DNA from: a virus
Lineage: Duplodnaviria > Heunggongvirae > Uroviricota > Caudoviricetes
Length of the DNA stretch: 64,000 nucleotides
Direction: 5' to 3' (one strand)
IMG/VR virus record: IMGVR_UViG_2974586480_000001
Positions 21,046 to 61,814 of the stretch are shown one piece after another (within the stretch, counting starts at the first letter, position 1; every line of letters begins with the position of its first letter). The position numbers and the translations under genes were made by a program. The notes beneath the pieces were generated by a model that saw nothing but the letters and a program-made list of their open reading frames with translations, searched no databases and was not told the DNA's origin.

Positions 21046-21452
21046 ACATTTGTCAATATGTAGGGAAATTGTATGATGGATTATTAAGCCGTTAAAAGCG
21101 GCCACCTACAAGGGCAAGTCATAATTGCCCCCTGAGTCTCACATGTTGGGAGCTGGTGTCGTGTCCAGTCAAGGTTACATATACAAAACCACGTGGGTAA
21201 AGCAGGTTAGGATCCAAAGCGACTAACTACCCGTTATAAGCGGCGAAAGAGCGACGGAACTAGGCTTGGCTACCCGCCACCGGTCGGGGTGAACCGGTAC
21301 ACAAATTATTTACTACGGCGACGCGCGTGTTAAATAGGTATCAAAAATGAAATTGACAATTGAAAACGTTAATATAATTCTTGTCCGCCTGTTACCGCTG
21401 TTAACTGATAGCCAGATAGCCAGATTAAAAACAATAACCATAGGGCTTTGAT

Positions 21453-21965
21453 ATGGAAATAAAAACACGAAACCCTTTGAATGCGAACCCAAGGACGACT
21501 GTTATCACGTCCCCTAAATTTCCTGATAAAAAAGGGAGAATTATTCGTCAATTTCCTAAACCGAAACTGGTAGAATGCTGGTTTCGGGATGTCGGATTTG
21601 TGGTTATGCGACCCGATGAATTGATTGCAGTAAAGGACGATGGATCCCTTGAAACTGTAAAAGGGGATGAATCCAGATCGGTGCACGGTACTGGTGCGGC
21701 TGGTAATCGCCTTGCGGCATTCCTGAAATCAAAAAGAGAAAAGGAATTAGCCCAAGAGGTGGCCAAAAAGGAAAGAGCTCAATGGGCCGAGCCAATGAAA
21801 ACACCCACTAAACAATTATCTAAGAAGGCATCAAGGATAATTGAATCCGGTAAATCTGAGGATGAGATAAATTACCAATTGAGAATGAATCTCACTAAAG
21901 ATATGGGGGTGTCCCATAAGAAGGGGGCAAAAGTCAGGGTAAACGCCGAGCAGGTACAAAAATGA
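21453..21965 (+). CDS. hypothetical protein
   Basis: 170-aa ORF coupled (ATGA overlap) to the next ORF. Confidence 0.5.
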   Translation: MEIKTRNPLNANPRTTVITSPKFPDKKGRIIRQFPKPKLVECWFRDVGFVVMRPDELIAVKDDGSLETVKGDESRSVHGTGAAGNRLAAFLKSKREKELAQEVAKKERAQWAEPMKTPTKQLSKKASRIIESGKSEDEINYQLRMNLTKDMGVSHKKGAKVRVNAEQVQK

Positions 21966-22195
21966 TTCAAGTTTCCTTTCGTGTTCCAAATAACCTTTTA
22001 GTCCATATCAAAGACAACGGATCCCTAACAACGGATGGTGTAGAATTTAACACCGCAAAGGTTAGGGATAAGTTAGGTTTTGTTATTGGTTTCATTGCTC
22101 ACTTTGAATCGAGTGACGTTAAGAAGGTTATAAAAGTTGAGTCAATGTTAAAGAAGTCTGGCATTGATTATGTTACCAGAACGATAAAAGGATAA
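21962..22195 (+). CDS. hypothetical protein
   Basis: 77-aa ORF followed by a strong terminator. Confidence 0.45.
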   Translation: MIQVSFRVPNNLLVHIKDNGSLTTDGVEFNTAKVRDKLGFVIGFIAHFESSDVKKVIKVESMLKKSGIDYVTRTIKG

Positions 22196-22214
22196 CCAGT
22201 AGTTAAGATAAAGT

Positions 22215-22238
22215 GCCCGCCTTTGAGCGGGCTTTTTT
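22215..22238 (+). terminator. rho-independent terminator
   Basis: GCCCGC-CTTTGA-GCGGGC followed by TTTTTT. Confidence 0.7.
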
Positions 22239-22329
22239 ATTACCTATTTAGTTTCACCTGAAACAAGCGGCGGCGTCCTTTGGATAGCTGGCCGCTGTTT
22301 CGTCACCGTAGTAAAAGCGCCGGAAATTT

Positions 22330-22690
22330 CAGGGGGCCTGTGATGCCGCTACTGTTTTATGATTAGGTAATCTTTACAAAAAGTGAAACCTGCCAAATCT
22401 GAGATCAAAAATCAACCAAAAACCTAATGGTTCACTATAACGTTAACGAGACGTTAGGGAGTGAGTTATGAAGCTGTTGTTTTATGAGTAGATGATTTCT
22501 TAAATCGAGTAGAAATTTCAGAGCCGCGAACCCTTTTGTGGGTGAATCCATGTAAAATAAGCAACTTCCTATCCATGGAATAGGATTAACAAGCTCCTAT
22601 GTCGGGGCAAGGAAACCGGTATGCCGTACCACATGTTGTTGTTTAATTAGGTAGTTTTTAACCAAACGTGACTTTTAATAACCGGTCTGA
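22330..22690 (+). repeat. Three copies of a roughly 25-nt direct repeat (consensus CTGTTGTTTTATGAtTAGgTaaTtTtt) in an ORF-free 600-nt region
   Basis: Copies at about 22343, 22468 and 22632. Each carries a TATGAT/TATGAG/TTTAAT -10-like hexamer. Terminators lie at 22215 and 22796. Confidence 0.45.
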
Positions 22691-22745
22691 CCACATATGT
22701 TTCGATGTATAGTGGTGGGGTGTAGTTTGTCAGCGACAGGCTACA

Positions 22746-22826
22746 CCTCAAAGGGTATTCTATGAGTGCTCTTTGAGGTGATTCCCCTATGTTTAGCCCC
22801 GAAACAAGAGGAGTAGGGGCTTTTTT
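22746..22826 (+). terminator. Tandem hairpins with a terminal rho-independent terminator
   Basis: A perfect 8-bp stem CCTCAAAG...CTTTGAGG at 22746-22777, then GCCCC-gaaacaagaggagta-GGGGC followed by TTTTTT at 22796-22826. Confidence 0.5.
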
Positions 22827-22832
22827 CAAGGA

Positions 22833-23111
22833 TTGAATATGAAACGCTTTATCTTTACCGTTTCTTTACTTTTGTCAAGTGTTTTACATGCTGAGGCACA
22901 AGAAACAGTCTTTGTTCCATCATCTGAATGGAATCAAATGGTTGAAAAGTTGAAAAACTGTAAAGTTGCAGACGTTGATCTCGATGAAACACCTACAACT
23001 TATGGTTTTCAGTGTGAAGATTGGATGATTTACGCTGATACTGATATTGTTTCTGAAATTTCTATTGTGGAAATTGAAGGGATTATCTATTTACCAGATA
23101 ACCAGCGTTAA
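22833..23111 (+). CDS. secreted small protein (signal peptide)
   Basis: 92 aa with an N-terminal signal-like 'MNMKRFIFTVSLLLSSVLHAEAQ'. Confidence 0.45.
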   Translation: MNMKRFIFTVSLLLSSVLHAEAQETVFVPSSEWNQMVEKLKNCKVADVDLDETPTTYGFQCEDWMIYADTDIVSEISIVEIEGIIYLPDNQR

Positions 23112-23143
23112 GCTCCGGTTAAGCAGTATTCTTACAGGTTTTT

Positions 23144-23491
23144 ATGGAATTAAATTATTGTAATCGGGTAATAAAATCAAAATACCCGATGTTTGATGTG
23201 GTAAAAGCGTCACAAAATGGGCTGGGACAAATTCTTTGTGAAGGTCTGAGCGAACGAGAGTTCCATTCAGTCATGGTTAAACGTGGAAACATTCAAGCCT
23301 ATTGTCGTTTTGCAGATTTGAAACCAAAAACGAAAGTTGAACTATTTTATGACTACGATTGCAAGAACAAAATCGCAATTGACCCAGTGAGATCGGAAAT
23401 ACTCACTCAACTTTCTAGTAAAATTTTAGTAAAACGAGTTGTTAAGAAAAAGTTTCTGATAGGTATTGACGGATCAATACATATGTGTTAA
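23144..23491 (+). CDS. hypothetical protein
   Basis: 115-aa ORF. Confidence 0.4.
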   Translation: MELNYCNRVIKSKYPMFDVVKASQNGLGQILCEGLSEREFHSVMVKRGNIQAYCRFADLKPKTKVELFYDYDCKNKIAIDPVRSEILTQLSSKILVKRVVKKKFLIGIDGSIHMC

Positions 23492-23545
23492 AATAAATAA
23501 TTAAATAATAATATATTAATAAGAAGTAATAATAAGAATATATTA
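23492..23545. other. extremely AT-rich tract (possible DNA-unwinding element)
   Basis: AAATAAATAATTAAATAATAATATATTAATAAGAAGTAATAATAAGAATATATTA. Confidence 0.3.
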
Positions 23546-23747
23546 TCCACGATTACCGCCTGCCCTTGCTATTGCCCACTACCAAAACCGGATAGCAGGG
23601 GTGGGCACCTTCTTGCAGTGTAGAACCCGCCTAGAATCGCGTATATTCAATTACTACGGTGATGCTGGTGCTACCCCATTGTTTAGACCTTCTTGCCTCT
23701 CATAATCGGATTGAGAGGTTCTGGCATTTTAGGTGTTTTTTAACCTG

Positions 23748-23775
23748 CCCTTCTCGCCGGAAGGGTTTTTTAAAA
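23748..23775 (+). terminator. rho-independent terminator
   Basis: CCCTTC-TCGCCG-GAAGGG followed by TTTTTT. Confidence 0.55.
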
Positions 23776-23808
23776 AGTACCACAACTTAATTCAGTGGAG
23801 AAAATGAG

Positions 23809-24018
23809 ATGGATTTTATCATTGCCCTGTTGATGCTTCTTGTATTTAATTTCGGTAGTGAAATCCTCATAGGTTTTGGGGTGATGGGTGTGTTGTATGT
23901 GGTTAAACCCGATCAAACACTGAAACTTCTGAAAATAGTTGGTAAGTCTTTTCTTGGCCTTGCCCTCATTATCATTTTCTTTAAGGATTTTCTACCATGG
24001 CTATCGAACCTGCTGTAA
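23809..24018 (+). CDS. small membrane protein
   Basis: 69 aa and hydrophobic. Confidence 0.4.
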   Translation: MDFIIALLMLLVFNFGSEILIGFGVMGVLYVVKPDQTLKLLKIVGKSFLGLALIIIFFKDFLPWLSNLL

Positions 24019-24796: not shown

Positions 24797-25554
24797 TGAA
24801 AAAGATACTGATTGCAGGCTTCATCGGCCTGTCAGCTCTGCTGGTTGGTGGTTGTGGTGATGGACTGACTGACAGGGAGGAATCCTGTCTCGCTGCCACT
24901 GGTAACATCGACTGCAAATCCGCAGCTGAGTTGGAGTTGGAAAAAGCCCGAATTCAAGCCAATGCCGATGTTCAAATCGCCAAAGCCCAAGGTATCATGA
25001 ACGGTGCCTCTGCCCCTATGCAATCAGAGGTAGCGCCCGGCCAGTACACGAATTACTACGGTGACGAGCGCTACGGCCAATGGAAACAGGATGGCACCTT
25101 CCAATTCAACGACCCGACTTCCAGCTGGGCCGAAAGCACCAACGCATTTCTGCTGGGTGCTGGCTTGGGGGGTTTGGCTGGCTACATGGCTACCAAAGCC
25201 GCCAGTCGTGGTGAATGGAAGAAATCCTATCCCAATGGCTATACCCCGAAAACCTACACCACCAAGACCTATATGGACAAAAGTGGTAAAACTATCAGCA
25301 AATCCGAATACGAACGTCGGGTTGCCCAGTCCAACAAAGACCGGATGAAATATCAGATGGAGCAGAACCGTAAGAAGTTCAACTCCAGCAAGCCACAAGT
25401 TGGATACAAACCCGCTGCCAAACCCACTATGGTAAAACCTGGGCAGCCTAATCCTCAGGTTAAGCACAACACTCCGGTACGTAAGCCGGTATACCAACCC
25501 AAAATGAAGCCCTTCAAGCCGAATTACGGCGGGAGCAGCAAGAAGCGTAAATAA
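24793..25554 (+). CDS. lipoprotein
   Basis: The lipobox 'LLVGGCGDG' follows a signal peptide. 253 aa. One copy of the TACTACGGTGAC motif lies inside the gene. Confidence 0.5.
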   Translation: MMKKILIAGFIGLSALLVGGCGDGLTDREESCLAATGNIDCKSAAELELEKARIQANADVQIAKAQGIMNGASAPMQSEVAPGQYTNYYGDERYGQWKQDGTFQFNDPTSSWAESTNAFLLGAGLGGLAGYMATKAASRGEWKKSYPNGYTPKTYTTKTYMDKSGKTISKSEYERRVAQSNKDRMKYQMEQNRKKFNSSKPQVGYKPAAKPTMVKPGQPNPQVKHNTPVRKPVYQPKMKPFKPNYGGSSKKRK

Positions 25555-25562
25555 CAAAACAA

Positions 25563-25597
25563 GGCCCCAGTAACTCCTTCTGGGGCTTTTTATTTTT
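25563..25597 (+). terminator. rho-independent terminator
   Basis: GGCCCCA-gtaactccttc-TGGGGC followed by TTTTTATTTTT. Confidence 0.6.
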
Positions 25598-25612
25598 AAA
25601 CAGGAGGTATTA

Positions 25613-26035: not shown

Positions 26036-26039
26036 GGAA

Positions 26040-26402
26040 ATGCGTAAATACAACCTGATTCGTAACGACCAAGCGCCGATGGATATCTTGGCTGAGAAGT
26101 TCAAAACCGACAGCAAGGATTACATTTTCTCCAAATATGATCCTGTTACTACCTACGACGTGGTGGTAGCAATCATTCCGGTAAGCTCGGTTGTTCAGAT
26201 CACCTCTGAAGAAATCGAGGCACCCAAGCGTAATTACAAGATTACCATGATGGGAGACAAGGTTGAACATGTGTGCGCTGAGTGTGCCGTCATCATGGAA
26301 GGTGACATGGTGTTCCTGAATTACGATGGTGACTACACCAGTTTTACTACGGTGACGCAGTTGCCTGTGAATAAAATCATCAAAACGGAAGTGGTGGATT
26401 AA
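26040..26402 (+). CDS. hypothetical protein
   Basis: 120-aa ORF containing one TACTACGGTGAC copy near its 3' end. Confidence 0.45.
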   Translation: MRKYNLIRNDQAPMDILAEKFKTDSKDYIFSKYDPVTTYDVVVAIIPVSSVVQITSEEIEAPKRNYKITMMGDKVEHVCAECAVIMEGDMVFLNYDGDYTSFTTVTQLPVNKIIKTEVVD

Positions 26403-26403
26403 C

Positions 26404-28597: not shown

Positions 28598-28867
28598 ATG
28601 AGTGAAAAAGTTGTTCGAATTATTGACCTGACCAAAGCTGGTAAGAGCCTTTTCACCGGCACTGATAGTGGTAAAAAGGTTGCTGACAAGTCGGATGTAC
28701 GTGGTTTGGTTCGACTGGAAATTAAGTCGGATAAAAAGCTTCTGGTTACTTCATCCTTCTTCTCCGGCCTTCTTAGCAAGGTTGATATGAAGAACTCTGA
28801 AGTTCACTACATCGGCCTGTCTGATCAGAGCAAATGCGAACTGAAACGGGCTCTTAAAGGGCTCTAA
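28598..28867 (+). CDS. hypothetical protein
   Basis: ATG at 28598 after a GGAGAAA RBS. 89 aa. Confidence 0.45.
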   Translation: MSEKVVRIIDLTKAGKSLFTGTDSGKKVADKSDVRGLVRLEIKSDKKLLVTSSFFSGLLSKVDMKNSEVHYIGLSDQSKCELKRALKGL

Positions 28868-29258: not shown

Positions 29259-29915
29259 ATGAGCGAAGTTAATATGGTTTCCATCACTGTTACCCAAGGT
29301 CTGCGTGAACGTAAAGTCCTCCGTGACCGTATCAGCCGCTCCATCAACGAAGGTGTCTTCGTGTCGGTGGTGGAAGGTGAGGCTAAACGCCCCGCCAGCA
29401 AGGCTTATCGTGACCTCGAATCCCTGAAGGCCACCATCCAATCCTCCACGGATTCGGTGAATGGCCTGATCAATCGTTACAATGCAATTGTGGATGCACT
29501 CATCGCATCCAACGCATCTACTACGGTGACGATTGCCAACAAGGCCATGACCGTTGCAGCCGCCATTGAGCGTCGCAACAGTTTTGAAATGAGCCTCAAC
29601 TTCCTGAACGCCATCCAGAACCAACATAACCGTTGTGTGACAGAGGTAAACACCAAGCAGGTTGTTCTGGATCGTGCTATCGAAAGCCGTATCCTTAACA
29701 ACAAAACTGATTCCATGGATGCTGCACAAGTGCAACAAGTCTCCGTGGATGCAAAAACTGTGTTGGATCGTGAGTCCAAGCCGGAAGTGTACGATCCGAT
29801 GAAGAACGCTGAGAACCTCAAAGGTCTCCGCAGCGAAGCAGAGGCTTTCATGGATGAGTTGGAAACTCAACTGAACATCGTGAACGCCACCACCATGATC
29901 TCCGTACCTGCCTGA
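29259..29915 (+). CDS. hypothetical protein
   Basis: 218 aa with an RBS. It contains one TACTACGGTGAC copy. The antisense 270-aa ORF is judged spurious. Confidence 0.5.
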   Translation: MSEVNMVSITVTQGLRERKVLRDRISRSINEGVFVSVVEGEAKRPASKAYRDLESLKATIQSSTDSVNGLINRYNAIVDALIASNASTTVTIANKAMTVAAAIERRNSFEMSLNFLNAIQNQHNRCVTEVNTKQVVLDRAIESRILNNKTDSMDAAQVQQVSVDAKTVLDRESKPEVYDPMKNAENLKGLRSEAEAFMDELETQLNIVNATTMISVPA

Positions 29916-32510: not shown

Positions 32511-32643
32511 AGGGTTAGGGCATGTAGCTCAGTGGATAGAGCAGTTGGCCCAAACCTGTGTACCCTGTGGGGGTAACTACTGCAAACCTTTTGAACAACC
32601 AATTGGTCGTAGGTTCGAATCCTACCTAGTCCTAGCCCTTCTT
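32508..32643 (+). ncRNA. tRNA-like RNA with a roughly 50-nt insertion at the anticodon-loop position, enclosed by a 13-bp terminal helix (Y-RNA/YrlA-like tRNA mimic candidate)
   Basis: There is a canonical D-arm (GCTC-AGTGGATA-GAGC) and T-arm (GTAGG-TTCGAAT-CCTAC). A short variable loop (TGGTC) is present. The anticodon stem GTTGG/CCAAT flanks a 50-nt insert (cccaaacctgtgtaccctgtgggggtaactactgcaaaccttttgaacaa). The acceptor-like stem is imperfect, but the flanks AAGAAGGGTTAGG and CCTAGCCCTTCTT pair over 13 bp. No CCA is encoded. Confidence 0.45.
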
Positions 32644-32657: not shown

Positions 32658-33032
32658 ATGCTTCAACGTTTTGTTGTTAATATGGCAAACTCACTGCCAA
32701 CCATTCTTTGGATGTACGCTGGTAGTCTGGTTGTTAGTGCAGTAACATTCTCATGGGCAGAAGGTAGAACTCTGCTCGATGGTCTTTGGTGGAGCTGTGC
32801 AACGGCTTTAACCATTGGTTACGGGGACATTGCCCCTGTAACAAATCTTGGAAAGTTCATAGGGTTGATCTTTGCCCACTTCTGGGTGCTGGTAACAATC
32901 CCGTTTGTCGTCGCAAACATAATCGTAAAGGTTATCAGAGATGATGACGCTTTTACTAACGATGAACAAGAGCTTATCAAGAGTCAGTTGTCTGAAATCT
33001 GTGAAGCTTTAAAAAGGAAAGGTGATCTATGA
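32658..33032 (+). CDS. Kcv-like minimal potassium channel (2TM/P-loop)
   Basis: Selectivity filter 'TALTIGYGDIAP' flanked by two hydrophobic helices. 124 aa. Confidence 0.65.
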   Translation: MLQRFVVNMANSLPTILWMYAGSLVVSAVTFSWAEGRTLLDGLWWSCATALTIGYGDIAPVTNLGKFIGLIFAHFWVLVTIPFVVANIIVKVIRDDDAFTNDEQELIKSQLSEICEALKRKGDL

Positions 33033-33582: not shown

Positions 33583-34791
33583 ATGGAACGTGTGCAAGTA
33601 CCCAAGGTTCGGCCTGACTGGAAAGAGCAGGTAGTGAGAGATGGTATGCTGTGGGCAGATACTGAAGATGGCCCGTATTGGTTTGAAGCCATGCAACAAC
33701 CAGTGTACTATAAATTCAGGGAAGTTGAAATAGACTCTCTGATGAAAGGTGGCGAGGTAATTCACCAAGCCATCCTTGAAGTCCTCACGAACCTCCTGAG
33801 CGATGGTGTTGAGAAAGAGTATGCTGAGAAATGGCGTAAAGCCTTCGGCCTCTCTGAGAAGTTATGGGATTTGGTCAAATACTCGTTCAACATTTCTGAT
33901 GAATGGGAATTCTTTGGCCGGTTCGACTTCTTAATGACCAGCCATGGCCCCAAGGTTTTGGAATACAACGCAGATACCCCGACAACTCTCATTGAGAGTG
34001 CGGTGTGTCAGTGGAACTGGTTTCAAGACATGGGCTTCGAGAAAGGTAGTCAGTTCAACAACATCCACGAGGGGTTGGTAAATCGTTGGAAAGAGCTCAA
34101 CGAGTTGAACAATCTCCGTGGCTCGGTAAACTTCGTCTCGGTCAACTTGATCGATGATGTGGCCACCTTGTGTTACATTGCAGAGACTTGCCGAGAGGCA
34201 GGCCTGGAAGTCCGTGTATTCCCTGTAGAAGATATTCAGTTTGATGAAGATAAAAAGGTGTTTCTCGATAATGAGGGGAATGTCTTGGAAAACTGCTTCA
34301 AGCTGTATCCTTGGGAGTGGATGATTCACGAGAAATTCAGTGAGCATCTGAGCACGGCTCCTACACGTTGGATGGAACCTGAATGGAAGTTGTTGGTGTC
34401 TAACAAGGCGATCCTCGCTCTGTTGTGGGATTACTACGGTGACACTTCGCATCCGGTTGTTAAATACCTGATGCCAACTTACATGGAAGGTGATTTCGGT
34501 GATTGGGATGGCAGTTGGGTAAGCAAACCCACCTTGAGCCGTGAGGGATCTGATGTCAAAATCATCAAGATTCACCAAGGTCAAGAAGAAGTCCTGTACT
34601 TCCACACCGGAATGTACTCCGAGGAATCTCGGGTGTATCAAAAGTTTATCCAATCTTTGACCTTTGAAGGATGCGTCCCAATGTTAGGTGTTTGGATGGC
34701 TGGCCCAGAAGCAGTTGGGCTCGGTATCCGTGAAGATGATTCACTGATTACCAAGAATAACAGCCGGTTCATACCGCACGTTTGGGAGTAA
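33583..34791 (+). CDS. glutathionylspermidine-synthetase-family (YgiC/YjfC-like) ATP-grasp amidoligase
   Basis: 'LLVSNKAILALLWDYYGDTSHPVVKYLMPTY' matches the GspS-family signature 'lsNKailplLWelfp.hpnLLpayf'. 402 aa. It pairs with the DUF1190 gene as in the E. coli ygiBC operon. Confidence 0.65.
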   Translation: MERVQVPKVRPDWKEQVVRDGMLWADTEDGPYWFEAMQQPVYYKFREVEIDSLMKGGEVIHQAILEVLTNLLSDGVEKEYAEKWRKAFGLSEKLWDLVKYSFNISDEWEFFGRFDFLMTSHGPKVLEYNADTPTTLIESAVCQWNWFQDMGFEKGSQFNNIHEGLVNRWKELNELNNLRGSVNFVSVNLIDDVATLCYIAETCREAGLEVRVFPVEDIQFDEDKKVFLDNEGNVLENCFKLYPWEWMIHEKFSEHLSTAPTRWMEPEWKLLVSNKAILALLWDYYGDTSHPVVKYLMPTYMEGDFGDWDGSWVSKPTLSREGSDVKIIKIHQGQEEVLYFHTGMYSEESRVYQKFIQSLTFEGCVPMLGVWMAGPEAVGLGIREDDSLITKNNSRFIPHVWE

Positions 34792-36477: not shown

Positions 36478-36552
36478 GGCCCCTTAGCTCAGTGGTAGAG
36501 CGATTGCCTCATAAGCGATTGGTCGCTGGTTCGAAACCAGTAGGGGTCACCA
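36478..36552 (+). tRNA. tRNA-Met/Ile2 (anticodon CAT)
   Basis: Full cloverleaf. Acceptor GGCCCCT/AGGGGTC. D-arm GCTC-AGTGGTA-GAGC. Anticodon arm ATTGC-CTCATAA-GCGAT. T-arm GCTGG-TTCGAAA-CCAGT. CCA is encoded. Confidence 0.85.
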
Positions 36553-37880: not shown

Positions 37881-37907
37881 GAAATCACTACGGTGACGGA
37901 GAAAGAT

Positions 37908-47224: not shown

Positions 47225-47252
47225 TTTACTACGGTGACAAGAGGAATATAAG

Positions 47253-48107
47253 ATGCGTTACGCTGCTTTTGGTTATAAAAAAGGTTCTCCGGTAAGCAAC
47301 GATGTGACTATCTATGATGGTCAGGCTGGTTGCTGGGGTGTTCTGGCAGGGAACCACACTGTGGGGACGAATGTGATCAACCAAATCCACTTCGACCTGG
47401 AGTTGTCCCGTTTCCGCAATGGTGCATGGGATGCCCTGAAACCGAAGGGTATGTCCGACGAAGAGTTTGCCGAAAAGGCATTCGAGGCAATCAACGAAGG
47501 TTATCTGGACTACCGTTTCGAGATGAAAACTGGTTCTTCTGGTACTTCAAGCCTCCACCTGATCGTTGACAATCTCAGCGAAAAGCTTCGCCAACGTACC
47601 ATGTGGATCCTGTTTACTTTCCGTAGCATGATCCAGTACGTAACCAATGCTGGTAACGCAGCTTACCTCATTGCCGACATGAAGATGTCTATGACACTCC
47701 GTGAAAAGATCATCCTGTCCCAGATCTTCTACCGTGGTTCTGGTGATCTCGGGTCTGGTTTCAATGGGGAAGTATTCCTCTACAACTCCGGTGGTTGTGT
47801 CCTGTACACCCCTCACGTCACCATCGCTGATATCCGAGCCCTCCTTCGTGGCGGGAAGTATTACGAACTCGACAAGGTTTCCAAGGAGACTTGGTCTGTT
47901 GGTGGTGGTTACAAGTCGGATCAGAACGTTCAAAACATTGCCTGTGCAATGAATACCGGAAAATCCTCACCTGATCGGGATATTGAATCCCTGAGCAGCA
48001 TCATCCGCAATTCCGCATGGTTGGAGTATAACAACCGGAAAGGTTGCCTGAAAGAGGGTCAACTCCGCAAGTTTATCCGCTGGTTGAAATACTACAAAAA
48101 GGGCTGA
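47253..48107 (+). CDS. hypothetical protein
   Basis: 284 aa. TACTACGGTGAC sits at -27 to -15 of the ATG. Confidence 0.5.
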   Translation: MRYAAFGYKKGSPVSNDVTIYDGQAGCWGVLAGNHTVGTNVINQIHFDLELSRFRNGAWDALKPKGMSDEEFAEKAFEAINEGYLDYRFEMKTGSSGTSSLHLIVDNLSEKLRQRTMWILFTFRSMIQYVTNAGNAAYLIADMKMSMTLREKIILSQIFYRGSGDLGSGFNGEVFLYNSGGCVLYTPHVTIADIRALLRGGKYYELDKVSKETWSVGGGYKSDQNVQNIACAMNTGKSSPDRDIESLSSIIRNSAWLEYNNRKGCLKEGQLRKFIRWLKYYKKG

Positions 48108-54365: not shown

Positions 54366-54410
54366 TGGCCCTTAGGGGCCTTTTAAAATGGTTACATAAG
54401 AGGAAATAGT

Positions 54411-56951
54411 ATGTGCGGAATCGTTCTGATGGGTTGTAAGTACCCTGGTGCCCGTGATGTTGATTTGTTTGAGCAACTGTTGTTTGCGGACACCTTCCGT
54501 GGGCCTCATTCGACTGGTGTACACAGCCTGTTCCAGTTGGAAGACAAAGGCCCTGTTATCACTGAAACCCAAAAGAAGCAATTGGATGGCCCAGCCTTCA
54601 TTGCCTCCAACCTTTGGCCACTCGTGTCAGAAAGACGTGTGCCTGGCGCTACCGCCAACTCGGTTCTGATCAAGCGCCCTTTCTGCATGATCGGCCACAA
54701 CCGTTGGGCCACCAAGGGTGGTATCAACGATGCGAACGCTCATCCGTTTAACCATGGGCATATCACCATGGTTCATAACGGTACTCTCCGCAATCAAGCC
54801 CTCCTTCCAGATCATGCAAAGTTCGAAGTTGACAGTGATAACGTTGCTTATGCACTTTCTGTTTGGGGTGTTGAAAAGACTGTTCAAAACCTGAACGGTG
54901 CTTTCACCCTGATTTGGCACGATGCGAACCTGCAAACCGTCAACATCATCCGTAACAGCGAACGTCCATTCCACTTGGCACGTACCTCTGCTGGTGATTG
55001 GTTTGGCGCTTCTGAGGAATCCATGTTGAAGTGGATCCTTTCTCGTCAAAAGGTTCCTGTTACTGTAGCAGAATCTTTCGAGTGTGAAGTTGGTGTTCAG
55101 TACATCTTCGATGTGTCAACTGGCAAATTCTTGCCTAAGGAGAATGTGAAGCACGAGCTTCCTACCTTTCGCACGACTTTCTACCAAGGCTTCTCGCAAG
55201 GCGCTTCGTCGTATTATGATGATGAGTACGACTACGACACTTGGTGGAACGAACGGGGAACACGACACAGCACCAACACCGAGACGCGGCAAGCGCAACA
55301 AGCGCGGTCGTCGACGTCGGTAAGCACTACAGATGCCGCAAAGCGTCGTGAAATGAATAATCTCCTGTGGGAACATGGGATTACCCAGCGCATCGGAGAT
55401 CGTGTCAATTTCACCTCTACCGACTTTCAGAGCTATCCTAAAAATTCTCCGTATGGCGAAATGGTCGGATACCTCGACACCAAGGAGTATGTAGGGACTA
55501 TCAGCCATGGTGTTGAAAAGAAACTGTACAACCAGTTTCAGGAATATCGTGGTGAAATTGTTAAGGCTGTTGTCGAAGATGGCACCCTCTACGTAACTAT
55601 TTCCAAGCCAATGCTCTTGGAGTCGATCATCGAACCTCGCGAGGATGGTGAACCCAATGGGAACATTGCCCTCATCGAATACCCCAACGTTGGAACTCGT
55701 TTTGAGTACAAAATCACCCATATCAACATGACAACCCGAACTTGGTCTGGTCAAACAGCCACTGGGATTGATGTGTATGGTGATTGGTTCCATCGTTACT
55801 CAGGTATGGAGGTTGGTGATGTGTGGTCTGGTCGGTCTGTAGTCCGTGTGGATAACCGTTATCGGATGGCAGATTGTATCAAGGTCTCTGGTAAAGAGGG
55901 GTTGGAAGGTGAGATTAAAGAGGGGGATAAGGTGAAATTCCGAATCACTTCTTTGAATCTTGGTACAACCTCTTTTGAAGGCATGACCGTCAAGGGTAAT
56001 CAGAAGGTCTCGGGTTCGATTCCAACTAACCTCTCCATGGCTCTTGGGGAAGAGTTTGAGGGTGGCGTCTACATTGCTTTTAATGACAAAAGCTTTCGTG
56101 TCAACAACGTATGCCGCCCAGGGACTGTGTCCAACCAAGAACTTCTTGCATCCATTGCCGATCTGGTGGTAGATGATGAGAAGGTAAACACCACCGCTAC
56201 CGGTGAGCGATTCACTGCAAAAAAGTGGGAGGAGAGTCTGGTTTCAACCTGCTGCGCTTGTTCCTCTCCAATCTCCTTCGATGATATGAAGGATGCAGTT
56301 ATCATCAGCGGGTACTCATTCTGCAAAGAATGTAAGGATTTGGATCCCCCTTTTGATGGGGTAGTCATCAATCATCCAGTAGCTGTTGCGGAGAATTGGT
56401 TTGACTGCCCAGAATGCGATATGCGTAAGCATATGGTTGTAAAATCAAAAAACAGCAATCTGTGCATCACTTGTGAAGGTAAAAAGTCACGAGTGACACG
56501 TCCAATCCTTTCAGTATCTGTGACTTCCAATCGTGCCCGTCTCGATAGTGATATGGGGAAAGAGGTTGAGTTTGTCATAACCCAACTGGCAACAGGCCCT
56601 GCATTCTGGGGCAAAACCAGAACTGATATCGCAGTTAGTGGTGTTATCCCCGAAGACGTTGTTGCCCACGTTGGTGAGATATGGAAAGGGGTTATCTCTC
56701 ACAAATTTGTTGACGGTTCCTATCGAATCGAAAACATAAAAAAGCGGTCTACATCTGAAGTGGTTCGAAGTATCAGCGATAACCGTGACATCAAAACACT
56801 TCCTAACGGAGCTTCTATCAAGAAAGATCTGTGGGACAAGATGTGCAACTGCAAGCATTGTTCCAACCCAATTCCTTGGGACGACGCTGATTTGGTAACA
56901 TTTGTAGGTGGTGTACCTGTGTGCAAAACCTGTGAAAAAGTTTTAATTTGA
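54411..56951 (+). CDS. class-II glutamine amidotransferase (Ntn hydrolase) fused to a large C-terminal region with multiple zinc ribbons
   Basis: Begins 'MCGIV' (N-terminal nucleophile Cys). 'FRGPHSTGVHS' and 'IGHNRWATKGGINDANAHPF' parallel GlmS '[20 protein letters not shown]'. The C-terminus has CxxC pairs (CCACSS...CKECK, CPECD...CITCEG, CNCKHC...CKTCEK). 846 aa. Confidence 0.7.
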   Translation: MCGIVLMGCKYPGARDVDLFEQLLFADTFRGPHSTGVHSLFQLEDKGPVITETQKKQLDGPAFIASNLWPLVSERRVPGATANSVLIKRPFCMIGHNRWATKGGINDANAHPFNHGHITMVHNGTLRNQALLPDHAKFEVDSDNVAYALSVWGVEKTVQNLNGAFTLIWHDANLQTVNIIRNSERPFHLARTSAGDWFGASEESMLKWILSRQKVPVTVAESFECEVGVQYIFDVSTGKFLPKENVKHELPTFRTTFYQGFSQGASSYYDDEYDYDTWWNERGTRHSTNTETRQAQQARSSTSVSTTDAAKRREMNNLLWEHGITQRIGDRVNFTSTDFQSYPKNSPYGEMVGYLDTKEYVGTISHGVEKKLYNQFQEYRGEIVKAVVEDGTLYVTISKPMLLESIIEPREDGEPNGNIALIEYPNVGTRFEYKITHINMTTRTWSGQTATGIDVYGDWFHRYSGMEVGDVWSGRSVVRVDNRYRMADCIKVSGKEGLEGEIKEGDKVKFRITSLNLGTTSFEGMTVKGNQKVSGSIPTNLSMALGEEFEGGVYIAFNDKSFRVNNVCRPGTVSNQELLASIADLVVDDEKVNTTATGERFTAKKWEESLVSTCCACSSPISFDDMKDAVIISGYSFCKECKDLDPPFDGVVINHPVAVAENWFDCPECDMRKHMVVKSKNSNLCITCEGKKSRVTRPILSVSVTSNRARLDSDMGKEVEFVITQLATGPAFWGKTRTDIAVSGVIPEDVVAHVGEIWKGVISHKFVDGSYRIENIKKRSTSEVVRSISDNRDIKTLPNGASIKKDLWDKMCNCKHCSNPIPWDDADLVTFVGGVPVCKTCEKVLI

Positions 56952-56960
56952 GGATTTTAG

Positions 56961-57182
56961 ATGACAGAAATGAGTGAAGTAAAAAGTCTGCGGCTTGAAC
57001 AGCCTGTGGTGGTGCGTAAAGTGCCGATGACTGCACAGGGCTGCAATATGCTGAGAGCAATCCGAGATTACCAGATGGCAGAATATGCTGCTCGTGGTGA
57101 TAACGTAGAGATTCCGTTTCCGGTGGCCATCCACCTGATGATGCGTGAATTCTGCGCAATGAAGAACATCACTGTTCATTGA
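56961..57182 (+). CDS. hypothetical small protein
   Basis: 73-aa ORF with an RBS. Confidence 0.4.
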   Translation: MTEMSEVKSLRLEQPVVVRKVPMTAQGCNMLRAIRDYQMAEYAARGDNVEIPFPVAIHLMMREFCAMKNITVH

Positions 57183-57260
57183 TAAGTTAAAGGGGTTAGG
57201 AAACTGACCCCTTTGCCATTCTCACTGAATGTTTCATAAATGTTAATTAGAGGTTACACA

Positions 57261-58442
57261 ATGTCTACTATCCGTATTTACCCTTATGGCCCTTCTGAAT
57301 CTGCTCGAACCTTGAAGGAAGGCCTTTCTGAAACCTTCCCGAACACAGCAGTTCTTCGCCGTGAGGGGAGTCGTTACCGTCCGCGTGAAGGTCACTTCCT
57401 CATCAACTATGGTTCCAGTGAAGTGAACATGGACATGCGTGGTTTGAACGTGTTCAACCGCCCTGAGCATATCCGTAATGCCTCCAACAAAATCCGTGCC
57501 TTCGAGGCTTTCGCTGCTGCGGGAATCCCGACTGTAGATTGGACTACTGATCGGAACATGGCAGAGGGTTGGATGAATGACAACCAAGTTATCTACGCCA
57601 GAACTCGACTTCAAGGCCATTCTGGTGAGGGGATTGTGGTATGTTCTCGCCAGAACGTCGAAGGTATGGGTAACACCTTCCCTGTCGGTAACAACCTTGT
57701 AAACGCTCCGTTGTATACCAAGGGTGTGACCGGAAACCGTAACGAGGTTCGTGTCCATGTCGCCTTTGGTCGTGTGATTCTGGAGCAAAAGAAGAAGCGT
57801 GTTGAGGGTTACAGGGATCTCCCCAACTACTCCAATGTAGTTCGTAACCACAGCACTGGGTGGATCTACGCAACTGAAGATCTGAACATCCCTCAAGAGG
57901 TTCGTGATACAGCAGTCCGTGCTGTAGCCGCGTTGAACTTGGATTTTGGTGCTGTTGACATTGTTTACAAAGGTCGTACTCGTTTTGAGGTTTACGTACT
58001 CGAAGTCAACACTGCCCCTGGCCTGTCAGGTGAGTCCTCTCGTGTAGCTTATGTTCGTGCTTTTACGGATCGTATCAACGGTGTGGAACCTGCCGAAACC
58101 CCAGAACCTGCCGTTGTGGCAAACCAAGAACCAGTTGTGGCTCAGGAGGCCAACCATGTTCAAGAAGTTCAACCTGCCGTTGTGGAAGAAGTACAAGTTG
58201 CACCTGCCGCAGTTCAACGATCTGCCAGTCAACCTCGAACTGCCGAACGACCCCAACGACCCAATGCCCAAGAAGCACGTTCTGCACTGATTGAAGGGCA
58301 CTTCTATGTAGTTCACCACACTCCGTCCGAGACTCGTATGGTGGTTGTATACCAGAACTCCGAGATGTGGCCCTGCGGTGTGGAGATGGGTATCCCTCCG
58401 ACCGAATGTCGGATCATCCGTGAAATCAATATCGAAGACTGA
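57261..58442 (+). CDS. ATP-grasp ligase (RimK-like) with a low-complexity P/V/A/Q/E-rich C-terminal region
   Basis: 'LNLDFGAVDIVYKGRTRFEVYVLEVNTAPGL' is typical of the ATP-grasp C-terminal half. The tail reads 'EPAETPEPAVVANQEPVVAQEANHVQEVQPAVVEEVQVAPAAVQ'. Confidence 0.65.
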   Translation: MSTIRIYPYGPSESARTLKEGLSETFPNTAVLRREGSRYRPREGHFLINYGSSEVNMDMRGLNVFNRPEHIRNASNKIRAFEAFAAAGIPTVDWTTDRNMAEGWMNDNQVIYARTRLQGHSGEGIVVCSRQNVEGMGNTFPVGNNLVNAPLYTKGVTGNRNEVRVHVAFGRVILEQKKKRVEGYRDLPNYSNVVRNHSTGWIYATEDLNIPQEVRDTAVRAVAALNLDFGAVDIVYKGRTRFEVYVLEVNTAPGLSGESSRVAYVRAFTDRINGVEPAETPEPAVVANQEPVVAQEANHVQEVQPAVVEEVQVAPAAVQRSASQPRTAERPQRPNAQEARSALIEGHFYVVHHTPSETRMVVVYQNSEMWPCGVEMGIPPTECRIIREINIED

Positions 58443-58450
58443 GGTATTTA

Positions 58451-58666
58451 ATGGCTTACACAGTTTTAGATTATACCAACTACAAAGGGGATCGCAAAAA
58501 GAGAGCTGTGATCCCTCTTAAAGTTCGGTTTGAATCCAACAACGAATACCATGGTGCCTCTTGGATTCTTGAGGCATATGATGTAAACAAGCGTCGTGTT
58601 CGTAGTTTTGATATCAAACAAATCCATAACCCAGAAGTCTTGGAGAATATAGACTTCACAAAGTAG
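58451..58666 (+). CDS. hypothetical small protein
   Basis: 71 aa. Confidence 0.4.
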   Translation: MAYTVLDYTNYKGDRKKRAVIPLKVRFESNNEYHGASWILEAYDVNKRRVRSFDIKQIHNPEVLENIDFTK

Positions 58667-58675
58667 GTTAAATTT

Positions 58676-59479
58676 ATGAAATCTAAATTTCAAGTTTTCG
58701 TACAGGGTATGGCCATCAACACCAGTATTTTTCAATTCTCTGGTGGTGAGTACCAAGTTAACCTTGACAAGTTGGTTATTGCAGGGAACAATCCTGTAAA
58801 AGCTCACATACAAGCTTTCATCTTGGATGGAGATATCATGCCATTGGCACTGATTGTGGATGCACTCCGTGGGGTATACGGGGATTGCTCTATCTCTTTA
58901 GACCTCCCGTACCTTCCCTACGCTCGCCAAGACCGTGTAATGAACAGCGGTGAAGCCTTGTCCTGCAAGGTATTCTGTGACATGATCAACGGACTTGGTT
59001 TCTCCAATGTCTATATCAATGATTGCCACAGTGATGTTGGTCTGGCTTTGATCAAAAATGTAACCAATATCCCGTTGCAACTTCCAACGGAATATGCGTA
59101 CATTCTGAATCCACTTCACAAGCCGTACGATGCTATCGTAGCCCCAGATGCCGGTGCCTTGAAGAAGTCTTACAAGGTTGCCCAATCCTATCATATACCT
59201 GAACTCATCAGAGCAGATAAAACCCGAGATGTGACCAATGGTGTCATCACAGGCACTGTGGTGTATGGTGACGTTGAAGGTAAACGCCTCATTGTGTGTG
59301 ATGACATCTGCGATGGTGGTATGACCTTCATCAAACTGGGTGAAGAACTGCGTAAACAGGGGGCAAAGTCAATCGACCTTCATGTTACCCATGGGATTTT
59401 CAGTAAAGGTAAAACTGAACTTCTCAAACTGTACAACAACGTAACTGCAACCTTCGATTATGAGGAGATGTTCAAATGA
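58676..59479 (+). CDS. ribose-phosphate pyrophosphokinase (PRPP synthetase)-like, candidate Adps of a NARP1-type pathway
   Basis: 'LPYLPYARQDR' (Prs signature) and the PRPP-binding loop 'RLIVCDDICDGGMTF'. 267 aa, shorter than cellular PrsA. Confidence 0.6.
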   Translation: MKSKFQVFVQGMAINTSIFQFSGGEYQVNLDKLVIAGNNPVKAHIQAFILDGDIMPLALIVDALRGVYGDCSISLDLPYLPYARQDRVMNSGEALSCKVFCDMINGLGFSNVYINDCHSDVGLALIKNVTNIPLQLPTEYAYILNPLHKPYDAIVAPDAGALKKSYKVAQSYHIPELIRADKTRDVTNGVITGTVVYGDVEGKRLIVCDDICDGGMTFIKLGEELRKQGAKSIDLHVTHGIFSKGKTELLKLYNNVTATFDYEEMFK

Positions 59480-59685
59480 TGATTTATTTTATTGGGGTTT
59501 GTATTTCTTTGGCACTTTTTACTTACTTCATAGCACAAGGTGAAAAGAATGGTAAAATAGATGCTGATGATTTCTTCAACACCCTCATGATCATTGGACT
59601 TTCCGCTGTGTGGTTTGTTACTTGGCCACTCCTCATTCTTGCTATCTCCATAAAGATTGGCAAGGATTTCTTTAAGAGGTTTTAA
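59476..59685 (+). CDS. small membrane protein
   Basis: 69 aa and hydrophobic. Confidence 0.35.
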   Translation: MMIYFIGVCISLALFTYFIAQGEKNGKIDADDFFNTLMIIGLSAVWFVTWPLLILAISIKIGKDFFKRF

Positions 59686-59686
59686 T

Positions 59687-59911
59687 ATGCCACTTTGGAT
59701 GTATGTGTCAGGTTTCCTGATAACGCTGATTGTCGTAGCAACTGTGATAGTCATAAAGGACGAAACAGAAGTTGTGATGAAGGATTTCAGTAGCCTCTGG
59801 GCTCTCTTTTTGTGTGCAGTATGGCCAATTGCTTGGTCTTTGTTCATGATTGATGTGCTCTTCACCATGCTTGTAGTGGCTATAAAATATCTGGTTGAGA
59901 GGTTTAAATGA
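59687..59911 (+). CDS. small membrane protein
   Basis: ATG at 59687 after an AAGAGG RBS. 74 aa. Confidence 0.35.
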   Translation: MPLWMYVSGFLITLIVVATVIVIKDETEVVMKDFSSLWALFLCAVWPIAWSLFMIDVLFTMLVVAIKYLVERFK

Positions 59912-60168
59912 GTGGGATTCTACTGGGCATCCTCTATATTGTTATAGGGTTGATCGCTGCGACTTGTTATCAAGTTGTAATAAGGTTCTACCAAAATGGA
60001 ATGTTGTATGATGAAGATTCTATCATATCTTTCATTGTTGCAATATTTTGGCCAGCCGCCATACCAGCAACTGTATTGACATGGTTGTTCAGCAATATTG
60101 TTTGCAATTTCAATGATGTATCTGAAAAGATATATAATAAACTCTCCAGTAAAAAGGATTCAAAATGA
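59908..60168 (+). CDS. small membrane protein
   Basis: 86 aa and hydrophobic. Confidence 0.35.
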   Translation: MSGILLGILYIVIGLIAATCYQVVIRFYQNGMLYDEDSIISFIVAIFWPAAIPATVLTWLFSNIVCNFNDVSEKIYNKLSSKKDSK

Positions 60169-61814
60169 GCTTTTCTGCCACCGCCGCTGATGCCTATAAA
60201 GTCTCTCACAAAGGTTTTATGGAGCCTGGCACCAATCGTATCTACTCCAACTTCACGGCCCGCAACTTCAAGCATATGCCGATTCCTGCACACCTGAAGG
60301 ATAACAAAATCGTTTGGTTTGGTATCCAAGCATATGTTACTGAGAAGCTGGTGAATAAGTGGAACTCCACTTTCTTCAAAAAACCCAAAGATGCCGTGTG
60401 TCGCCGTCTTGCACGTCGATTCAACACCTTCTTCGGACAAGACAAGGTAAATGTCAAGCATTTTGAAGAACTGCATGACTTGGGCTACCTTCCTATCCAC
60501 ATCAAATCCTTGCCAGAAGGTTCTGTTGTTCCGGCCAAAGTTGCACTGATGACCATCACCAACACTGATGATCGTTTTGGCTGGTTGACCAATTATCTGG
60601 AAACACAAATCAGTTCTGATCTGTGGAAACCTGCCACCGTTGCAACTATCGCCCGTGCTTATCGCAAACTGTGTGACAAGTATGCAATGGAAACCGTTGG
60701 TAGCACTGACGGTGTCGAGTTCCAGTGCCATGACTTCTCCATGCGTGGTATGTCTGGTGAAGAGGATGCAGAACGTTGTGGCCCTGGCCATCTTCTGTTC
60801 TTCAAGGGTACTGACACCCTCCCAGCAGTAGACCGTATCGAGGATTACTACGGTGTCGATGCTGAGAAGTTCTTTATCGGTACTTCTGTACCAGCATCTG
60901 AGCACTCTCTGGCATCTCTGGGGTATGCTGTTCGTGGTGAACTGGAAGCCTTCCGTAAATGGATGACTGTGGATTATCCAACAGGCATTGTGAGTTTGGT
61001 GTCCGATACCACTGATTACTGGAAAGTTTTGAGCGAGTATGCACCAGCTCTCAAGGATAACATTCTGGCCCGTAAGCCAGATGAACTCGGTCTGTGCAAG
61101 GTCGTGTTCCGTCCTGACTCTGGTAATCCAGCTGACATCCTCTGTGGTCATGAGTACATTGAGATCACTGATGAAAAGGATTTCTACTGGCACTACTGCA
61201 ACACCACTCAGGATGACACCTTCGTGAAAATCGGAGAAGAGTTCTTTGAGCTGTCTTGGGATATTCACTGGGCCGATGGATACAGTGAATATGAAGGTTT
61301 CACCATTGGTAACAAGGTTGATCCTCGTGTCATCAAGGGTTCTGTAGAACTTCTGTGGGACACTTTCGGGGGTACTATCACTGAGAAGGGTTATAAGATG
61401 TTAGATTCTCACGTAGGTCTGATCTATGGCGACTCTATCACCCTTGCTGTTGCAGAAGACATCTTCAAGCGACTCAAGAAGAAAGGTTTTGCCTCCCTGA
61501 ACGTTGTTTTGGGCATCGGTTCTTATACCTATAACTACCTGACCCGTGACTCTGCTGGTATGGCTATCAAAGCCACCTATGCAGAGGTGAACGGTAAGCC
61601 GGTAGTCCTGTCCAAAGATCCTGTTACTGATGATGGCACCAAGAAATCTGCCAAAGGTCTGATTCGTGTAGAACGTCAGAACGGAACTTTTGTTCAGTTT
61701 GATGAGCAAACCTCTGAACAGGAAAAAGTGGGAGCCCTCGAAACCATCCTCTTTAATGGTGCCCAGTTTAATCTGAAAACTTGGGATACCATTATCGAAA
61801 CTGCAAACGCTTAA
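60165..61814 (+). CDS. nicotinamide phosphoribosyltransferase (NAMPT/NadV)-like, candidate Namat
   Basis: N-terminal 'ADAYKVSHKGF' (the DSYKxSH hallmark of the NAMPT family). 549 aa. The antisense 426-aa ORF is judged spurious. Confidence 0.65.
   Translation: MSFSATAADAYKVSHKGFMEPGTNRIYSNFTARNFKHMPIPAHLKDNKIVWFGIQAYVTEKLVNKWNSTFFKKPKDAVCRRLARRFNTFFGQDKVNVKHFEELHDLGYLPIHIKSLPEGSVVPAKVALMTITNTDDRFGWLTNYLETQISSDLWKPATVATIARAYRKLCDKYAMETVGSTDGVEFQCHDFSMRGMSGEEDAERCGPGHLLFFKGTDTLPAVDRIEDYYGVDAEKFFIGTSVPASEHSLASLGYAVRGELEAFRKWMTVDYPTGIVSLVSDTTDYWKVLSEYAPALKDNILARKPDELGLCKVVFRPDSGNPADILCGHEYIEITDEKDFYWHYCNTTQDDTFVKIGEEFFELSWDIHWADGYSEYEGFTIGNKVDPRVIKGSVELLWDTFGGTITEKGYKMLDSHVGLIYGDSITLAVAEDIFKRLKKKGFASLNVVLGIGSYTYNYLTRDSAGMAIKATYAEVNGKPVVLSKDPVTDDGTKKSAKGLIRVERQNGTFVQFDEQTSEQEKVGALETILFNGAQFNLKTWDTIIETANA

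Follow-up and report, generated by a model that had tools for sequence, protein, structure and literature searches.

A strand-biased 12-mer of Aeromonas phage 4_4572 as a likely specificity variant of the phage tf/LUZ24-type nick sites

Background

Why should the genome of a tailed phage carry one 12-nucleotide word ten times over, almost always on the same DNA strand and both within genes and between them? The question is raised by a 64,000-nucleotide stretch of viral DNA (IMG/VR record IMGVR_UViG_2974586480_000001, the whole of which is called the window below), in which a first-pass annotation noted the recurrence of TACTACGGTGAC. Megablast identifies the window, at 100% identity, as part of Aeromonas phage 4_4572 (NC_048773/MK813943, 102,915 bp, genus Lahexavirus), where it spans record positions 38916-102915, such that a record position equals the window position plus 38,915. 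The kin of this phage include Salmonella phage 7-11 and Cronobacter phage GAP52, podophages whose heads are prolate and whose genes form two convergent arms. In 4_4572 the structural arm occupies the minus strand of window positions 1-17,478 and is followed by a 2.8-kb region free of open reading frames (ORFs), after which a long plus-strand arm carries early, metabolic and replication genes and encodes an ECF-type sigma factor, gp046. An RNA ligase and an 'RNA-binding protein' are also among the gene products of the phage.

That packaged phage DNA can carry nicks at specific sites has been recognised since the 1960s, from phage T5, and the purpose of these nicks is still unexplained. Glukhov et al mapped 14 ligatable nicks in the DNA of Pseudomonas putida phage tf, at the sequence TACT/RTGMC, all of which lie on the top strand, 11 of the 14 within the genome's left half, with each present in more than 90% of molecules; a variant, TACCGTGAC (TACC GTGAC), was not nicked (PMC3517423). 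The same report gives late nicking and early repair for phage phiKF77 (PMC3517423). In the LUZ24-like phage P1-14Or01, Essoh et al found read ends piled up at eight GTACTATGAC sites (PMC3634792). Nanopore sequencing of phage Rembedalsseter by Dougherty et al showed the coverage of a single strand to drop at 13 WACTRTGAC sites; in the 250 genomes nearest to that of this phage, they reported enrichment of the motif to be confined to a cluster of 61 Pseudomonas phages, where it had no intergenic excess, and they put forward no nickase and described the function as unknown (PMC11780129).

We report a computational analysis of the repeated word in 4_4572 and its relatives. We think it likely that the copies of (T)TACTACGGTGAC(G) are recognition sites of a phage-encoded, strand-specific nicking system, homologous to that of tf and the LUZ24-like phages, which would cut at TACTACG^GTGAC and in which G has replaced T. 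The motif is thus best read not as categorically new but as a specificity-shifted addition to the tf/LUZ24-type family of nick sites, one that extends the family to Lahexavirus and its relatives.

Results

The word is enriched, and conserved as DNA

Allowing up to one mismatch, TACTACGGTGAC is found ten times in the window against an expectation of 0.13, and none of 100 dinucleotide shuffles reaches ten. Nine copies are on the plus strand and one, at 22302, is on the minus strand. These are the ten copies that the first-pass annotation had listed, with a single slip of coordinate (34433 for 34432). Whole-genome counts, for which the 4_4572 genome was rebuilt from the record and the window, give eleven copies, nine on the plus strand and two on the minus strand, the additional one being a minus-strand copy at record position 32759, outside the window and inside the minus-strand structural gene gp064. 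The 9:2 split has a binomial p of 0.065, and both minus-strand copies are exact. The 11-mer ACTACGGTGAC occurs exactly six times on the plus strand where 0.01 are expected and, under a third-order Markov model, TACTACGG, ACTACGGTG and TACTACGGTG rank as the top 8-, 9- and 10-mers of the whole genome. The motif core is likewise the top over-represented word in LAh_8, a relative that is 97-98% identical to 4_4572.

The plus-strand copies are far from evenly spread. All nine lie between 60.2 and 99.8 kb of the record, the first just downstream of the ORF-free region, and the whole-genome count places none in the 30-kb plus-strand replication block. The farther they are from the long intergenic region, the wider their spacing (Spearman 0.88, p=0.004), which goes from 1.3-2.3 kb at first to 9-14 kb at the end of the arm. 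Five of the ten copies in the window are intergenic, in a stretch of which 13% is non-coding (p=0.006).

The five remaining copies lie in genes and, by the RefSeq coding sequence coordinates, are read in two frames, as first suggested: those at 25054, 34432 and 60846 fall on a codon boundary and encode YYGD (YYGV in the case of 60846), while those at 26345 and 29519 are offset by two and encode TTVT. Since the word is found in two frames, and five times between genes, its conservation is at the nucleotide level, and a repeated protein motif (YYGD) or coding domain, which the first-pass annotation had weighed as a competing explanation, is ruled out as its source. A bias of the flanking bases noticed at the same time is also real, with T before the motif in 8/10 copies and G after it in 8/10; around the ten copies neither sequence beyond some 3 nt of flank (13-16 nt in all) nor any secondary-structure context is conserved.

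Related phages carry the same word or one a single base away

The first-pass annotation had proposed counting the word in the complete genome and in related phages. Relatives in several genera were picked by their sigma factor and the unbiased word scan was repeated on their complete or half genomes. In Aeromonas phage BUCT695 (Libingvirus; sigma factor 57% identical) the word takes the form TACTACGGTGCC, with six copies on one strand and one on the other at up to one mismatch in the 12-mer, and its core TACTACGGTG is again the top 10-mer; four of the copies lie within 18 kb of the start of the early arm and two are inside the oppositely transcribed structural arm. Aeromonas phage APT65 (Aquaneticvirus) is enriched in ACTACGGTGAC, with four copies against none, all on the early-gene strand. 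The Aeromonas phages that bear the word thus belong to three genera, with sigma factors that are 46-57% identical, and the positions of their sites are not syntenic, from which we conclude that the word has been maintained independently in each genome.

Outside the Aeromonas phages a sister word is found. In Salmonella phage 7-11, aACTACTGTGACg is the top word by a wide margin, with 12 copies against one, packed at the early end of the genome (97.9, 96.8, 95.7, 94.6, 93.1, 88.9 ... % of its length). Photobacterium phage PhCF1.2 has tTACTACTRTGACg six times on one strand and never on the other, while Proteus phages P59 and Privateer carry five copies of gACTACTGTGACg together with two of ACTACGGTGAC, on the same strand. 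Lyrsu01, a tf-like phage of P. syringae, has TACTGTGAC, with at least 11 TACTRTGMC sites on one strand and none on the other. Kuravirus SU10 holds two identical copies of ttttagTACTATGACgc, which are not enriched.

Aligned without gaps, the Aeromonas form ACTAC-G-GTGAC (ACTACGGTGAC) and the form ACTAC-T-GTGAC found elsewhere stand a single base apart, and ACTACTGTGAC, the word of 7-11, the Proteus phages and the Photobacterium phage, is one base off the Aeromonas word. An alignment in which the Aeromonas word had a 3-nt insertion relative to tf (TACT+ACG+GTGAC) was dropped once 7-11 had given this ungapped, one-base difference. The two forms are exclusive, in that T-type sites are absent from both strands of 4_4572 and G-type sites from 7-11; such a partition into cognate and non-cognate forms is the expected product of co-evolution between an enzyme and its site. 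Otherwise the ACTACTGTGAC sites of 7-11, Privateervirus and PhCF1.2 share with those of 4_4572 the 11-12-nt frame, the flanks, the strand rule and the early-end gradient, in phages of the same or a sister family that also have a conserved HNH-like gene; the difference is T against G, and the Proteus phages hold both.

The early-end gradient is also present in 7-11, BUCT695, PhCF1.2 and tf. Sites within the oppositely transcribed structural arms of tf, 7-11 and BUCT695 stay on the same DNA strand as the others, which argues for a property of the DNA strand rather than a signal in the transcript. The original description of the 4_4572 copies as co-oriented with genes is better replaced by placement on one DNA strand, a rule that the two exact minus-strand copies break in its strict form.

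Three side observations concern these sister words. The twelve aACTACTGTGACg copies of 7-11 (NC_015938) lie on its minus strand between 27711 and 88031, and each contains an exact tf nick site. At positions 57083 and 83740 of 7-11 a gene is annotated as starting with the RTG of the motif, and the same holds at tf sites sci1, sci4 and sci11. The Proteus phages have the T-form ACTACTGTGAC five times and the G-form ACTACGGTGAC twice, all on the same strand (Privateer 26006, 32005; P59 12276-44728).

A scan of IMG/VR with the 14-mer TTACTACGGTGACG returned at least 119 single chance matches and no contig with multiple copies. In a full-text search the Aeromonas word appeared in no paper of the library covered and the 7-11 version only in the tf paper (PMC3517423); the 4_4572 genome paper makes no mention of the motif, of a nick or of a promoter.

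The sites correspond to mapped nick sites at all but one base

The nick sites of tf are annotated in its record and invite direct comparison. Eight of the nine core bases (TAC-GTGAC) are identical between 4_4572 and the tf/LUZ24-like phages (Krylovvirus and Bruynoghevirus; TACT/RTGMC or WACTRTGAC), and tf and the Aeromonas phages show the same tolerance of A or C at position 8 (GTGAC in 4_4572, GTGCC in BUCT695). In both, G follows the site, most sites are on one strand (9:2 in 4_4572), which is the coding strand of the early arm, and their density is highest toward the early or left end, with sites within and outside genes.

The base on the 5' side of the cut sets the two apart, being G in 4_4572 and T in tf, where a change at that position abolished nicking. 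The 4_4572 genome has no exact TACTRTGMC site; its core, TACGGTGAC, fits at 8/9 positions, with G at position 4. On this comparison of sequences the 4_4572 site is a specificity variant and not a substrate of the tf enzyme. The systems also differ in that the conserved word is longer in 4_4572 (12-13 nt, with a fixed (T)TAC prefix), that two copies are on the other strand (14:0 in tf), that there is an enrichment between genes and that the host is Aeromonas and the genome 103 kb, where tf-type genomes are of some 45 kb.

The phages themselves are related. Discounting spurious opposite-strand ORFs, about 20 tf ORFs have BLASTP homologues in 4_4572, BUCT695, APT65 and 7-11, including the primase/helicase (46%), both DNA polymerase parts, the 5'-3' exonuclease, endonuclease I, the terminase (42%), the portal and the capsid, along with a cassette of COOH-NH2 ligase, amidoligase, GATase and ATP-grasp genes; the tf record also has the two-arm layout of 4_4572. 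The lineage that carries the Aeromonas motif therefore shares its descent with the phages whose nicks are proven. The virion nicks of T5/BF23 (R/GCGCRGG) and of the phiKMV-like phages (CGACN5CCTA/CTCCGG) represent the same phenomenon, being site-specific, single-stranded, ligatable and of unknown function, but their recognition sequences and lineages are unrelated to 4_4572, whose genome has 0 matches of the phiKMV type and 0/2 of the T5 type (absent or at chance level).

A small HNH-like protein is the candidate nickase

A nicking system of this kind calls for an enzyme, and the candidate that we propose from its sequence and predicted structure is gp019, a small (112 aa) HNH-like protein encoded at 9744-10082 of NC_048773, outside the window, and belonging to the family phrog_4590. 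Its homologues include tf_29, gp068 of 7-11 and gp068 of BUCT695. The family is the best conserved of those shared with tf, since tf_29 is 55-63% identical by BLAST to its homologues in four phages, where other tf-shared proteins reach 25-47%; the identity of gp019 to each of the other four sequences in a multiple alignment is 61-82%. H60, N74 and N83 are invariant in 60 homologues and form an HNH-like H..N..N arrangement. Matches to four HNH or EndoVII PHROGs have E-values of 1e-4 to 4e-5, phrog_4590 itself being a family of unknown function. The AlphaFold model has a beta-beta-alpha core, with strands at 56-60 and 75-79 and a helix at 80-85, and the PDB entries listed for it by Foldseek are mostly HNH nucleases, the first of them an HNH nicking endonuclease; a sequence search of the PDB with the HNH-like family gave no match. 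Other candidates for the role are the terminase nuclease, the endonuclease I homologue and the flap exonuclease.

A homologue of gp019 is present in 250 phage records, spread over Bruynoghevirus, Kuravirus, Grimontviridae and the phages of Aeromonas; 453 metagenomic clusters also hold one. At residue 31 the protein has Lys in four phages with G-type sites (4_4572, APT65, BUCT695 and P59) and Gly in five that have T-type sites only (7-11, SU10, PhCF1.2, tf and Lyrsu01), and G, K or S among the metagenomic homologues. This residue may track the switch of base in the site, in a correlation that is confounded by phylogeny. Within 10 kb on either side of the metagenomic homologues P0009 and P0019 (both Lys) and P0026 (Ser) there is at most one candidate site per locus (aACTACCGTGACg; CTCTACGGTGACg; none), too few to weigh the correlation, the sites being sparse near the HNH gene. 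Contig SRR18474599_35261, which encodes a Lys-31 HNH-like protein, has its single aACTACCGTGACg at 7470-7480, on the gene strand and near the gene; on this one site, which is too little for a judgement, the motif may have a third variant, with C.

These observations lead us to a broader proposal, which we put forward tentatively and hold to be possible rather than probable: that the motif and phrog_4590 form one co-evolving system of site and enzyme across Bruynoghevirus, Krylovvirus, Kuravirus, Grimontviridae, Lahexavirus and Aquaneticvirus, with its specificity switched at the cut-adjacent base and residue 31 perhaps following the switch. The base would be T in the Pseudomonas, Salmonella and Photobacterium phages, G in those of Aeromonas and both in those of Proteus. 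If true, this would name the nickase for the tf/LUZ24-type nicks, to which the cited papers assign no enzyme, and provide a natural specificity series for asking what nicks in phage genomes do.

Discussion

A proposed nicking system and the points against it

By analogy with tf, a phage-encoded enzyme, most likely gp019, would recognise (T)TACTACGGTGAC(G) and cut one phosphodiester bond at TACTACG^GTGAC, after the G of TACTACG, as tf DNA is cut at TACT^RTGMC. Cutting would probably come late in infection, a timing taken from the late nicking and early repair of phiKF77, and virion DNA would then carry ligatable nicks, essentially on one strand and crowded at the early-gene end, with the Aeromonas phages representing the variant that has G for T at the base 5' of the cut. 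What the analysis shows is the motif statistics, the conservation across the family with a switch of one base, the common distribution and the kinship with nicked phages; the physical nick in 4_4572, its exact position, its timing and the identity of the nickase are inferred. As a speculation, nicks confined to the strand that early genes do not use as template would leave the first round of host transcription unblocked; to our mind the inverted copy at 22302, some 70 nt past a strong terminator, fits this rationale.

Several observations weigh against this proposal. The nicks of tf and the LUZ24-like phages have been mapped physically, whereas those of 4_4572, Lahexavirus and Grimontviridae are predicted from sequence. 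Since the tf variant TACCGTGAC escapes nicking, the G-form has to be assumed to need an enzyme of changed specificity. The assignment of gp019 to the HNH proteins is sub-threshold in Pfam (E=0.006), its AlphaFold model has a pLDDT of 66.6 (73-84 in the core) and the best Foldseek hit, at E=0.22, is not significant. Two exact copies are on the 'wrong' strand (22302 and record 32759), where tf has none. The excess of intergenic copies, with two copies 10-14 nt from start codons, has no counterpart in the 61 Pseudomonas phages and therefore leaves room for a role related to expression. Kuravirus SU10 has the HNH-like gene and only 2-3 sites without enrichment, so a genome with the gene need not be rich in sites. 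In view of the opposite-strand copies, the intergenic enrichment and the case of SU10, we allow a modest probability to DNA binding without cutting or to a role linked to expression.

Other roles for the word

Recognition without cutting, by a sequence-specific phage protein acting in packaging, in ejection of the leading end or as a roadblock or repressor of early transcription, would suit a site that is long (12-13 bp), asymmetric and conserved, with copies crowded at the early end of the genome and enriched between genes. Against it stand the physical nicking, in three related phages, of a word that differs by one base, the failure to identify a candidate binding protein and the spacing of the sites, which are 1-14 kb apart and not clustered as operators are; we regard it as unlikely. 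That the word acts at the level of RNA, as UACUACGGUGAC in early transcripts, being either a processing or cleavage site or an element related to translation, seems to us very improbable, despite the 10/11 copies of 4_4572 that lie in sense transcripts, the two that abut ribosome-binding sites and the RNA ligase and 'RNA-binding protein' that the phage encodes. The rule across the family concerns one DNA strand and not the sense strand, there is neither a conserved secondary-structure context nor a conserved flank beyond some 3 nt, and the direct evidence in relatives is of breaks in DNA. Partial complementarity of the motif to the 3' region of 16S rRNA (~8/12 bases) we take to be coincidental. 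Hardly any credence attaches to the word as a target or footprint of a homing endonuclease, or of another mobile or recombination element, at module boundaries: Lahexavirus genomes do differ by inserted endonuclease genes, and nicks can stimulate recombination, but homing sites are normally single rather than ten to a genome, conservation ends at 13-16 nt and the indel breakpoints between 4_4572 and LAh_8 lie 24 to 7052 nt from the copies, with 11/13 scored sites more than 400 nt away. The motif was accordingly rejected as a module or indel boundary, the breakpoints not coinciding with copies.

The first-pass annotation had also entertained a promoter for a phage-specific factor, and this part of its range of roles fares far worse than the nicking endonuclease site, for which homology to the mapped tf-type nicks is strong support. 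A promoter, or part of one, for the middle genes of the plus-strand arm, used by host RNA polymerase together with gp046 or another phage factor, would be in keeping with the encoded sigma factor, the five intergenic copies, two of them just upstream of start codons, and the 10/11 copies co-oriented with local genes. Half of the copies are deep inside genes, however, and no -10-like or -35 partner is found at a constant distance from the motif; a MotA-type promoter (in T4 a sigma70 -10 element stands 11-13 bp downstream of a box at -30) or an extended promoter was rejected, TAnnnT-like hexamers downstream of the ten copies being at inconsistent distances. The phiEco32 and 7-11 homologues of the sigma factor use elements of the AATGTA / TGATGTTATA type, and the motif contains no AATGTA/TGATGT-like element. 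In phiEco32, AATGTA is centred at −11.5 (PMC12276001), and in 7-11 tgTGATGTtata is predicted, with four copies upstream of the structural arm (PMC4331800). These middle and late promoters of phiEco32 gp36 and the 7-11 sigma factor resemble the 4_4572 motif in being short conserved words, few in number, in the same phage lineage, but they differ in sequence and in their clustering upstream of the structural arm. A separate word of 4_4572, GGCATGT(A/T), has four minus-strand copies, and every one of them falls within the ORF-free stretch upstream of the structural arm (window 17769, 17800, 17832 and 18509), just where late promoters would be looked for, against a single copy on the plus strand; from its sequence and position this cluster is the likely counterpart of the published phage-sigma late promoters. 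The records of tf and Lyrsu01 have no annotated sigma gene, yet the sister motif is present, and in the structural arms of tf, 7-11 and BUCT695 the copies point against transcription. A promoter is, in our judgement, a very unlikely explanation.

Significance for related phages

A tf-type system with a one-base change in specificity thus appears to run through the larger C3-morphotype phages of Aeromonas, Salmonella and Proteus. The finding widens a poorly understood nick phenomenon to a much larger group of phages and points to a specific, conserved candidate enzyme and to ten exact coordinates. Those who sequence or engineer these phages should expect strand breaks at the sites, with effects on long-read coverage, library preparation and apparent genome ends.

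Copies of the word in the window

Nick positions in this section are predictions by analogy with the tf cut. The first plus-strand copy, at 21311..21322, is a variant, TACTACGGCGAC (T>C in GTG), and is intergenic, 130 nt upstream of gp087 and downstream of the gp086 terminator and a sigma70-like promoter, with a predicted nick at 21317/21318; LAh_8 keeps the same variant, which is possibly a weak or decayed site. The inverted copy, which is exact, lies on the minus strand at 22302..22313, in the 640-nt gap between gp088 and gp089 and downstream of the strong plus-strand intrinsic terminator at 22215-22232. It is kept in LAh_8, and its predicted nick is on the minus strand at 22307/22306. At 23652..23663 on the plus strand a further variant, TACTACGGTGAT (last base C>T), is intergenic, 145 nt upstream of gp091 (predicted nick 23658/23659), and has the same form in LAh_8.

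Four exact plus-strand copies lie within genes. These are at 25054..25065, inside gp094 and in the YYGD frame (predicted nick 25060/25061); at 26345..26356, near the 3' end of gp096 in the TTVT frame and 47 nt before the next start codon (26351/26352); at 29519..29530, inside gp105 and in the TTVT frame (29525/29526), the LAh_8 equivalent of which reads ..GAT; and at 34432..34443, inside gp112, which encodes glutathionylspermidine synthase, in the YYGD frame (34438/34439).

Two plus-strand copies immediately precede genes, as the first-pass annotation had pointed out. The copy at 37886..37897, CACTACGGTGAC (CAC.., with the 11-mer core ACTACGGTGAC intact), ends 10 nt upstream of the ATG of gp118 at 37908 (predicted nick 37892/37893), and an exact copy at 47227..47238 ends 14 nt upstream of the ATG of gp131 at 47253 (predicted nick 47233/47234). 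The GTG within the former opens an ORF, 37893-38519, in frame with gp118; the annotators of LAh_8 chose this GTG start (208 aa), and a better ribosome-binding site (GGAG) goes with the ATG at 37908. The last copy, at 60846..60857 on the plus strand, is inside gp149, a nicotinamide phosphoribosyltransferase gene, in the YYGV frame, and is a variant, TACTACGGTGTC, with A>T where tf tolerates A or C; it is possibly a weak site, with a predicted nick at 60852/60853.

Other features of the genome

The ORF-free region, at window 17479-20317 between the divergent arms, has sigma70-like plus-strand promoters at 19050-19078, 19300-19329 and 19494-19522, from which early transcripts would carry a leader of some 1 kb. 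It also contains repeats, among them an exact 16-mer, AGGCAGAATTGCCCAA, at 19191 and 19263, and CCGAAAGG near 19110-19170. Since the equivalent region is where the 7-11 and BUCT695 records begin, the physical ends of the genome may lie there.

The next most over-represented strand-biased word of the whole genome is CAGACAGG(T), with seven copies on the plus strand and two on the minus strand, scattered without obvious context; those in the window are at 1983 and 39988 (plus) and at 28816 and 51122 (minus).

Compared with 4_4572, LAh_8 has inserted endonuclease genes (LAh_8 16494-17093, 20846-21307 and 21694-22902), its glutathionylspermidine synthase is split in two and its record is without the ~4.8 kb matching window 56659-61495. 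The 4_4572 genome paper describes eight 'pseudo tRNA' genes. RefSeq annotates a 117-nt 'tRNA-Leu' at window 32518-32634, and the only tRNAs that ARAGORN finds in the window are tRNA-Met (36478-36552) and tRNA-Cys (39945-40018).

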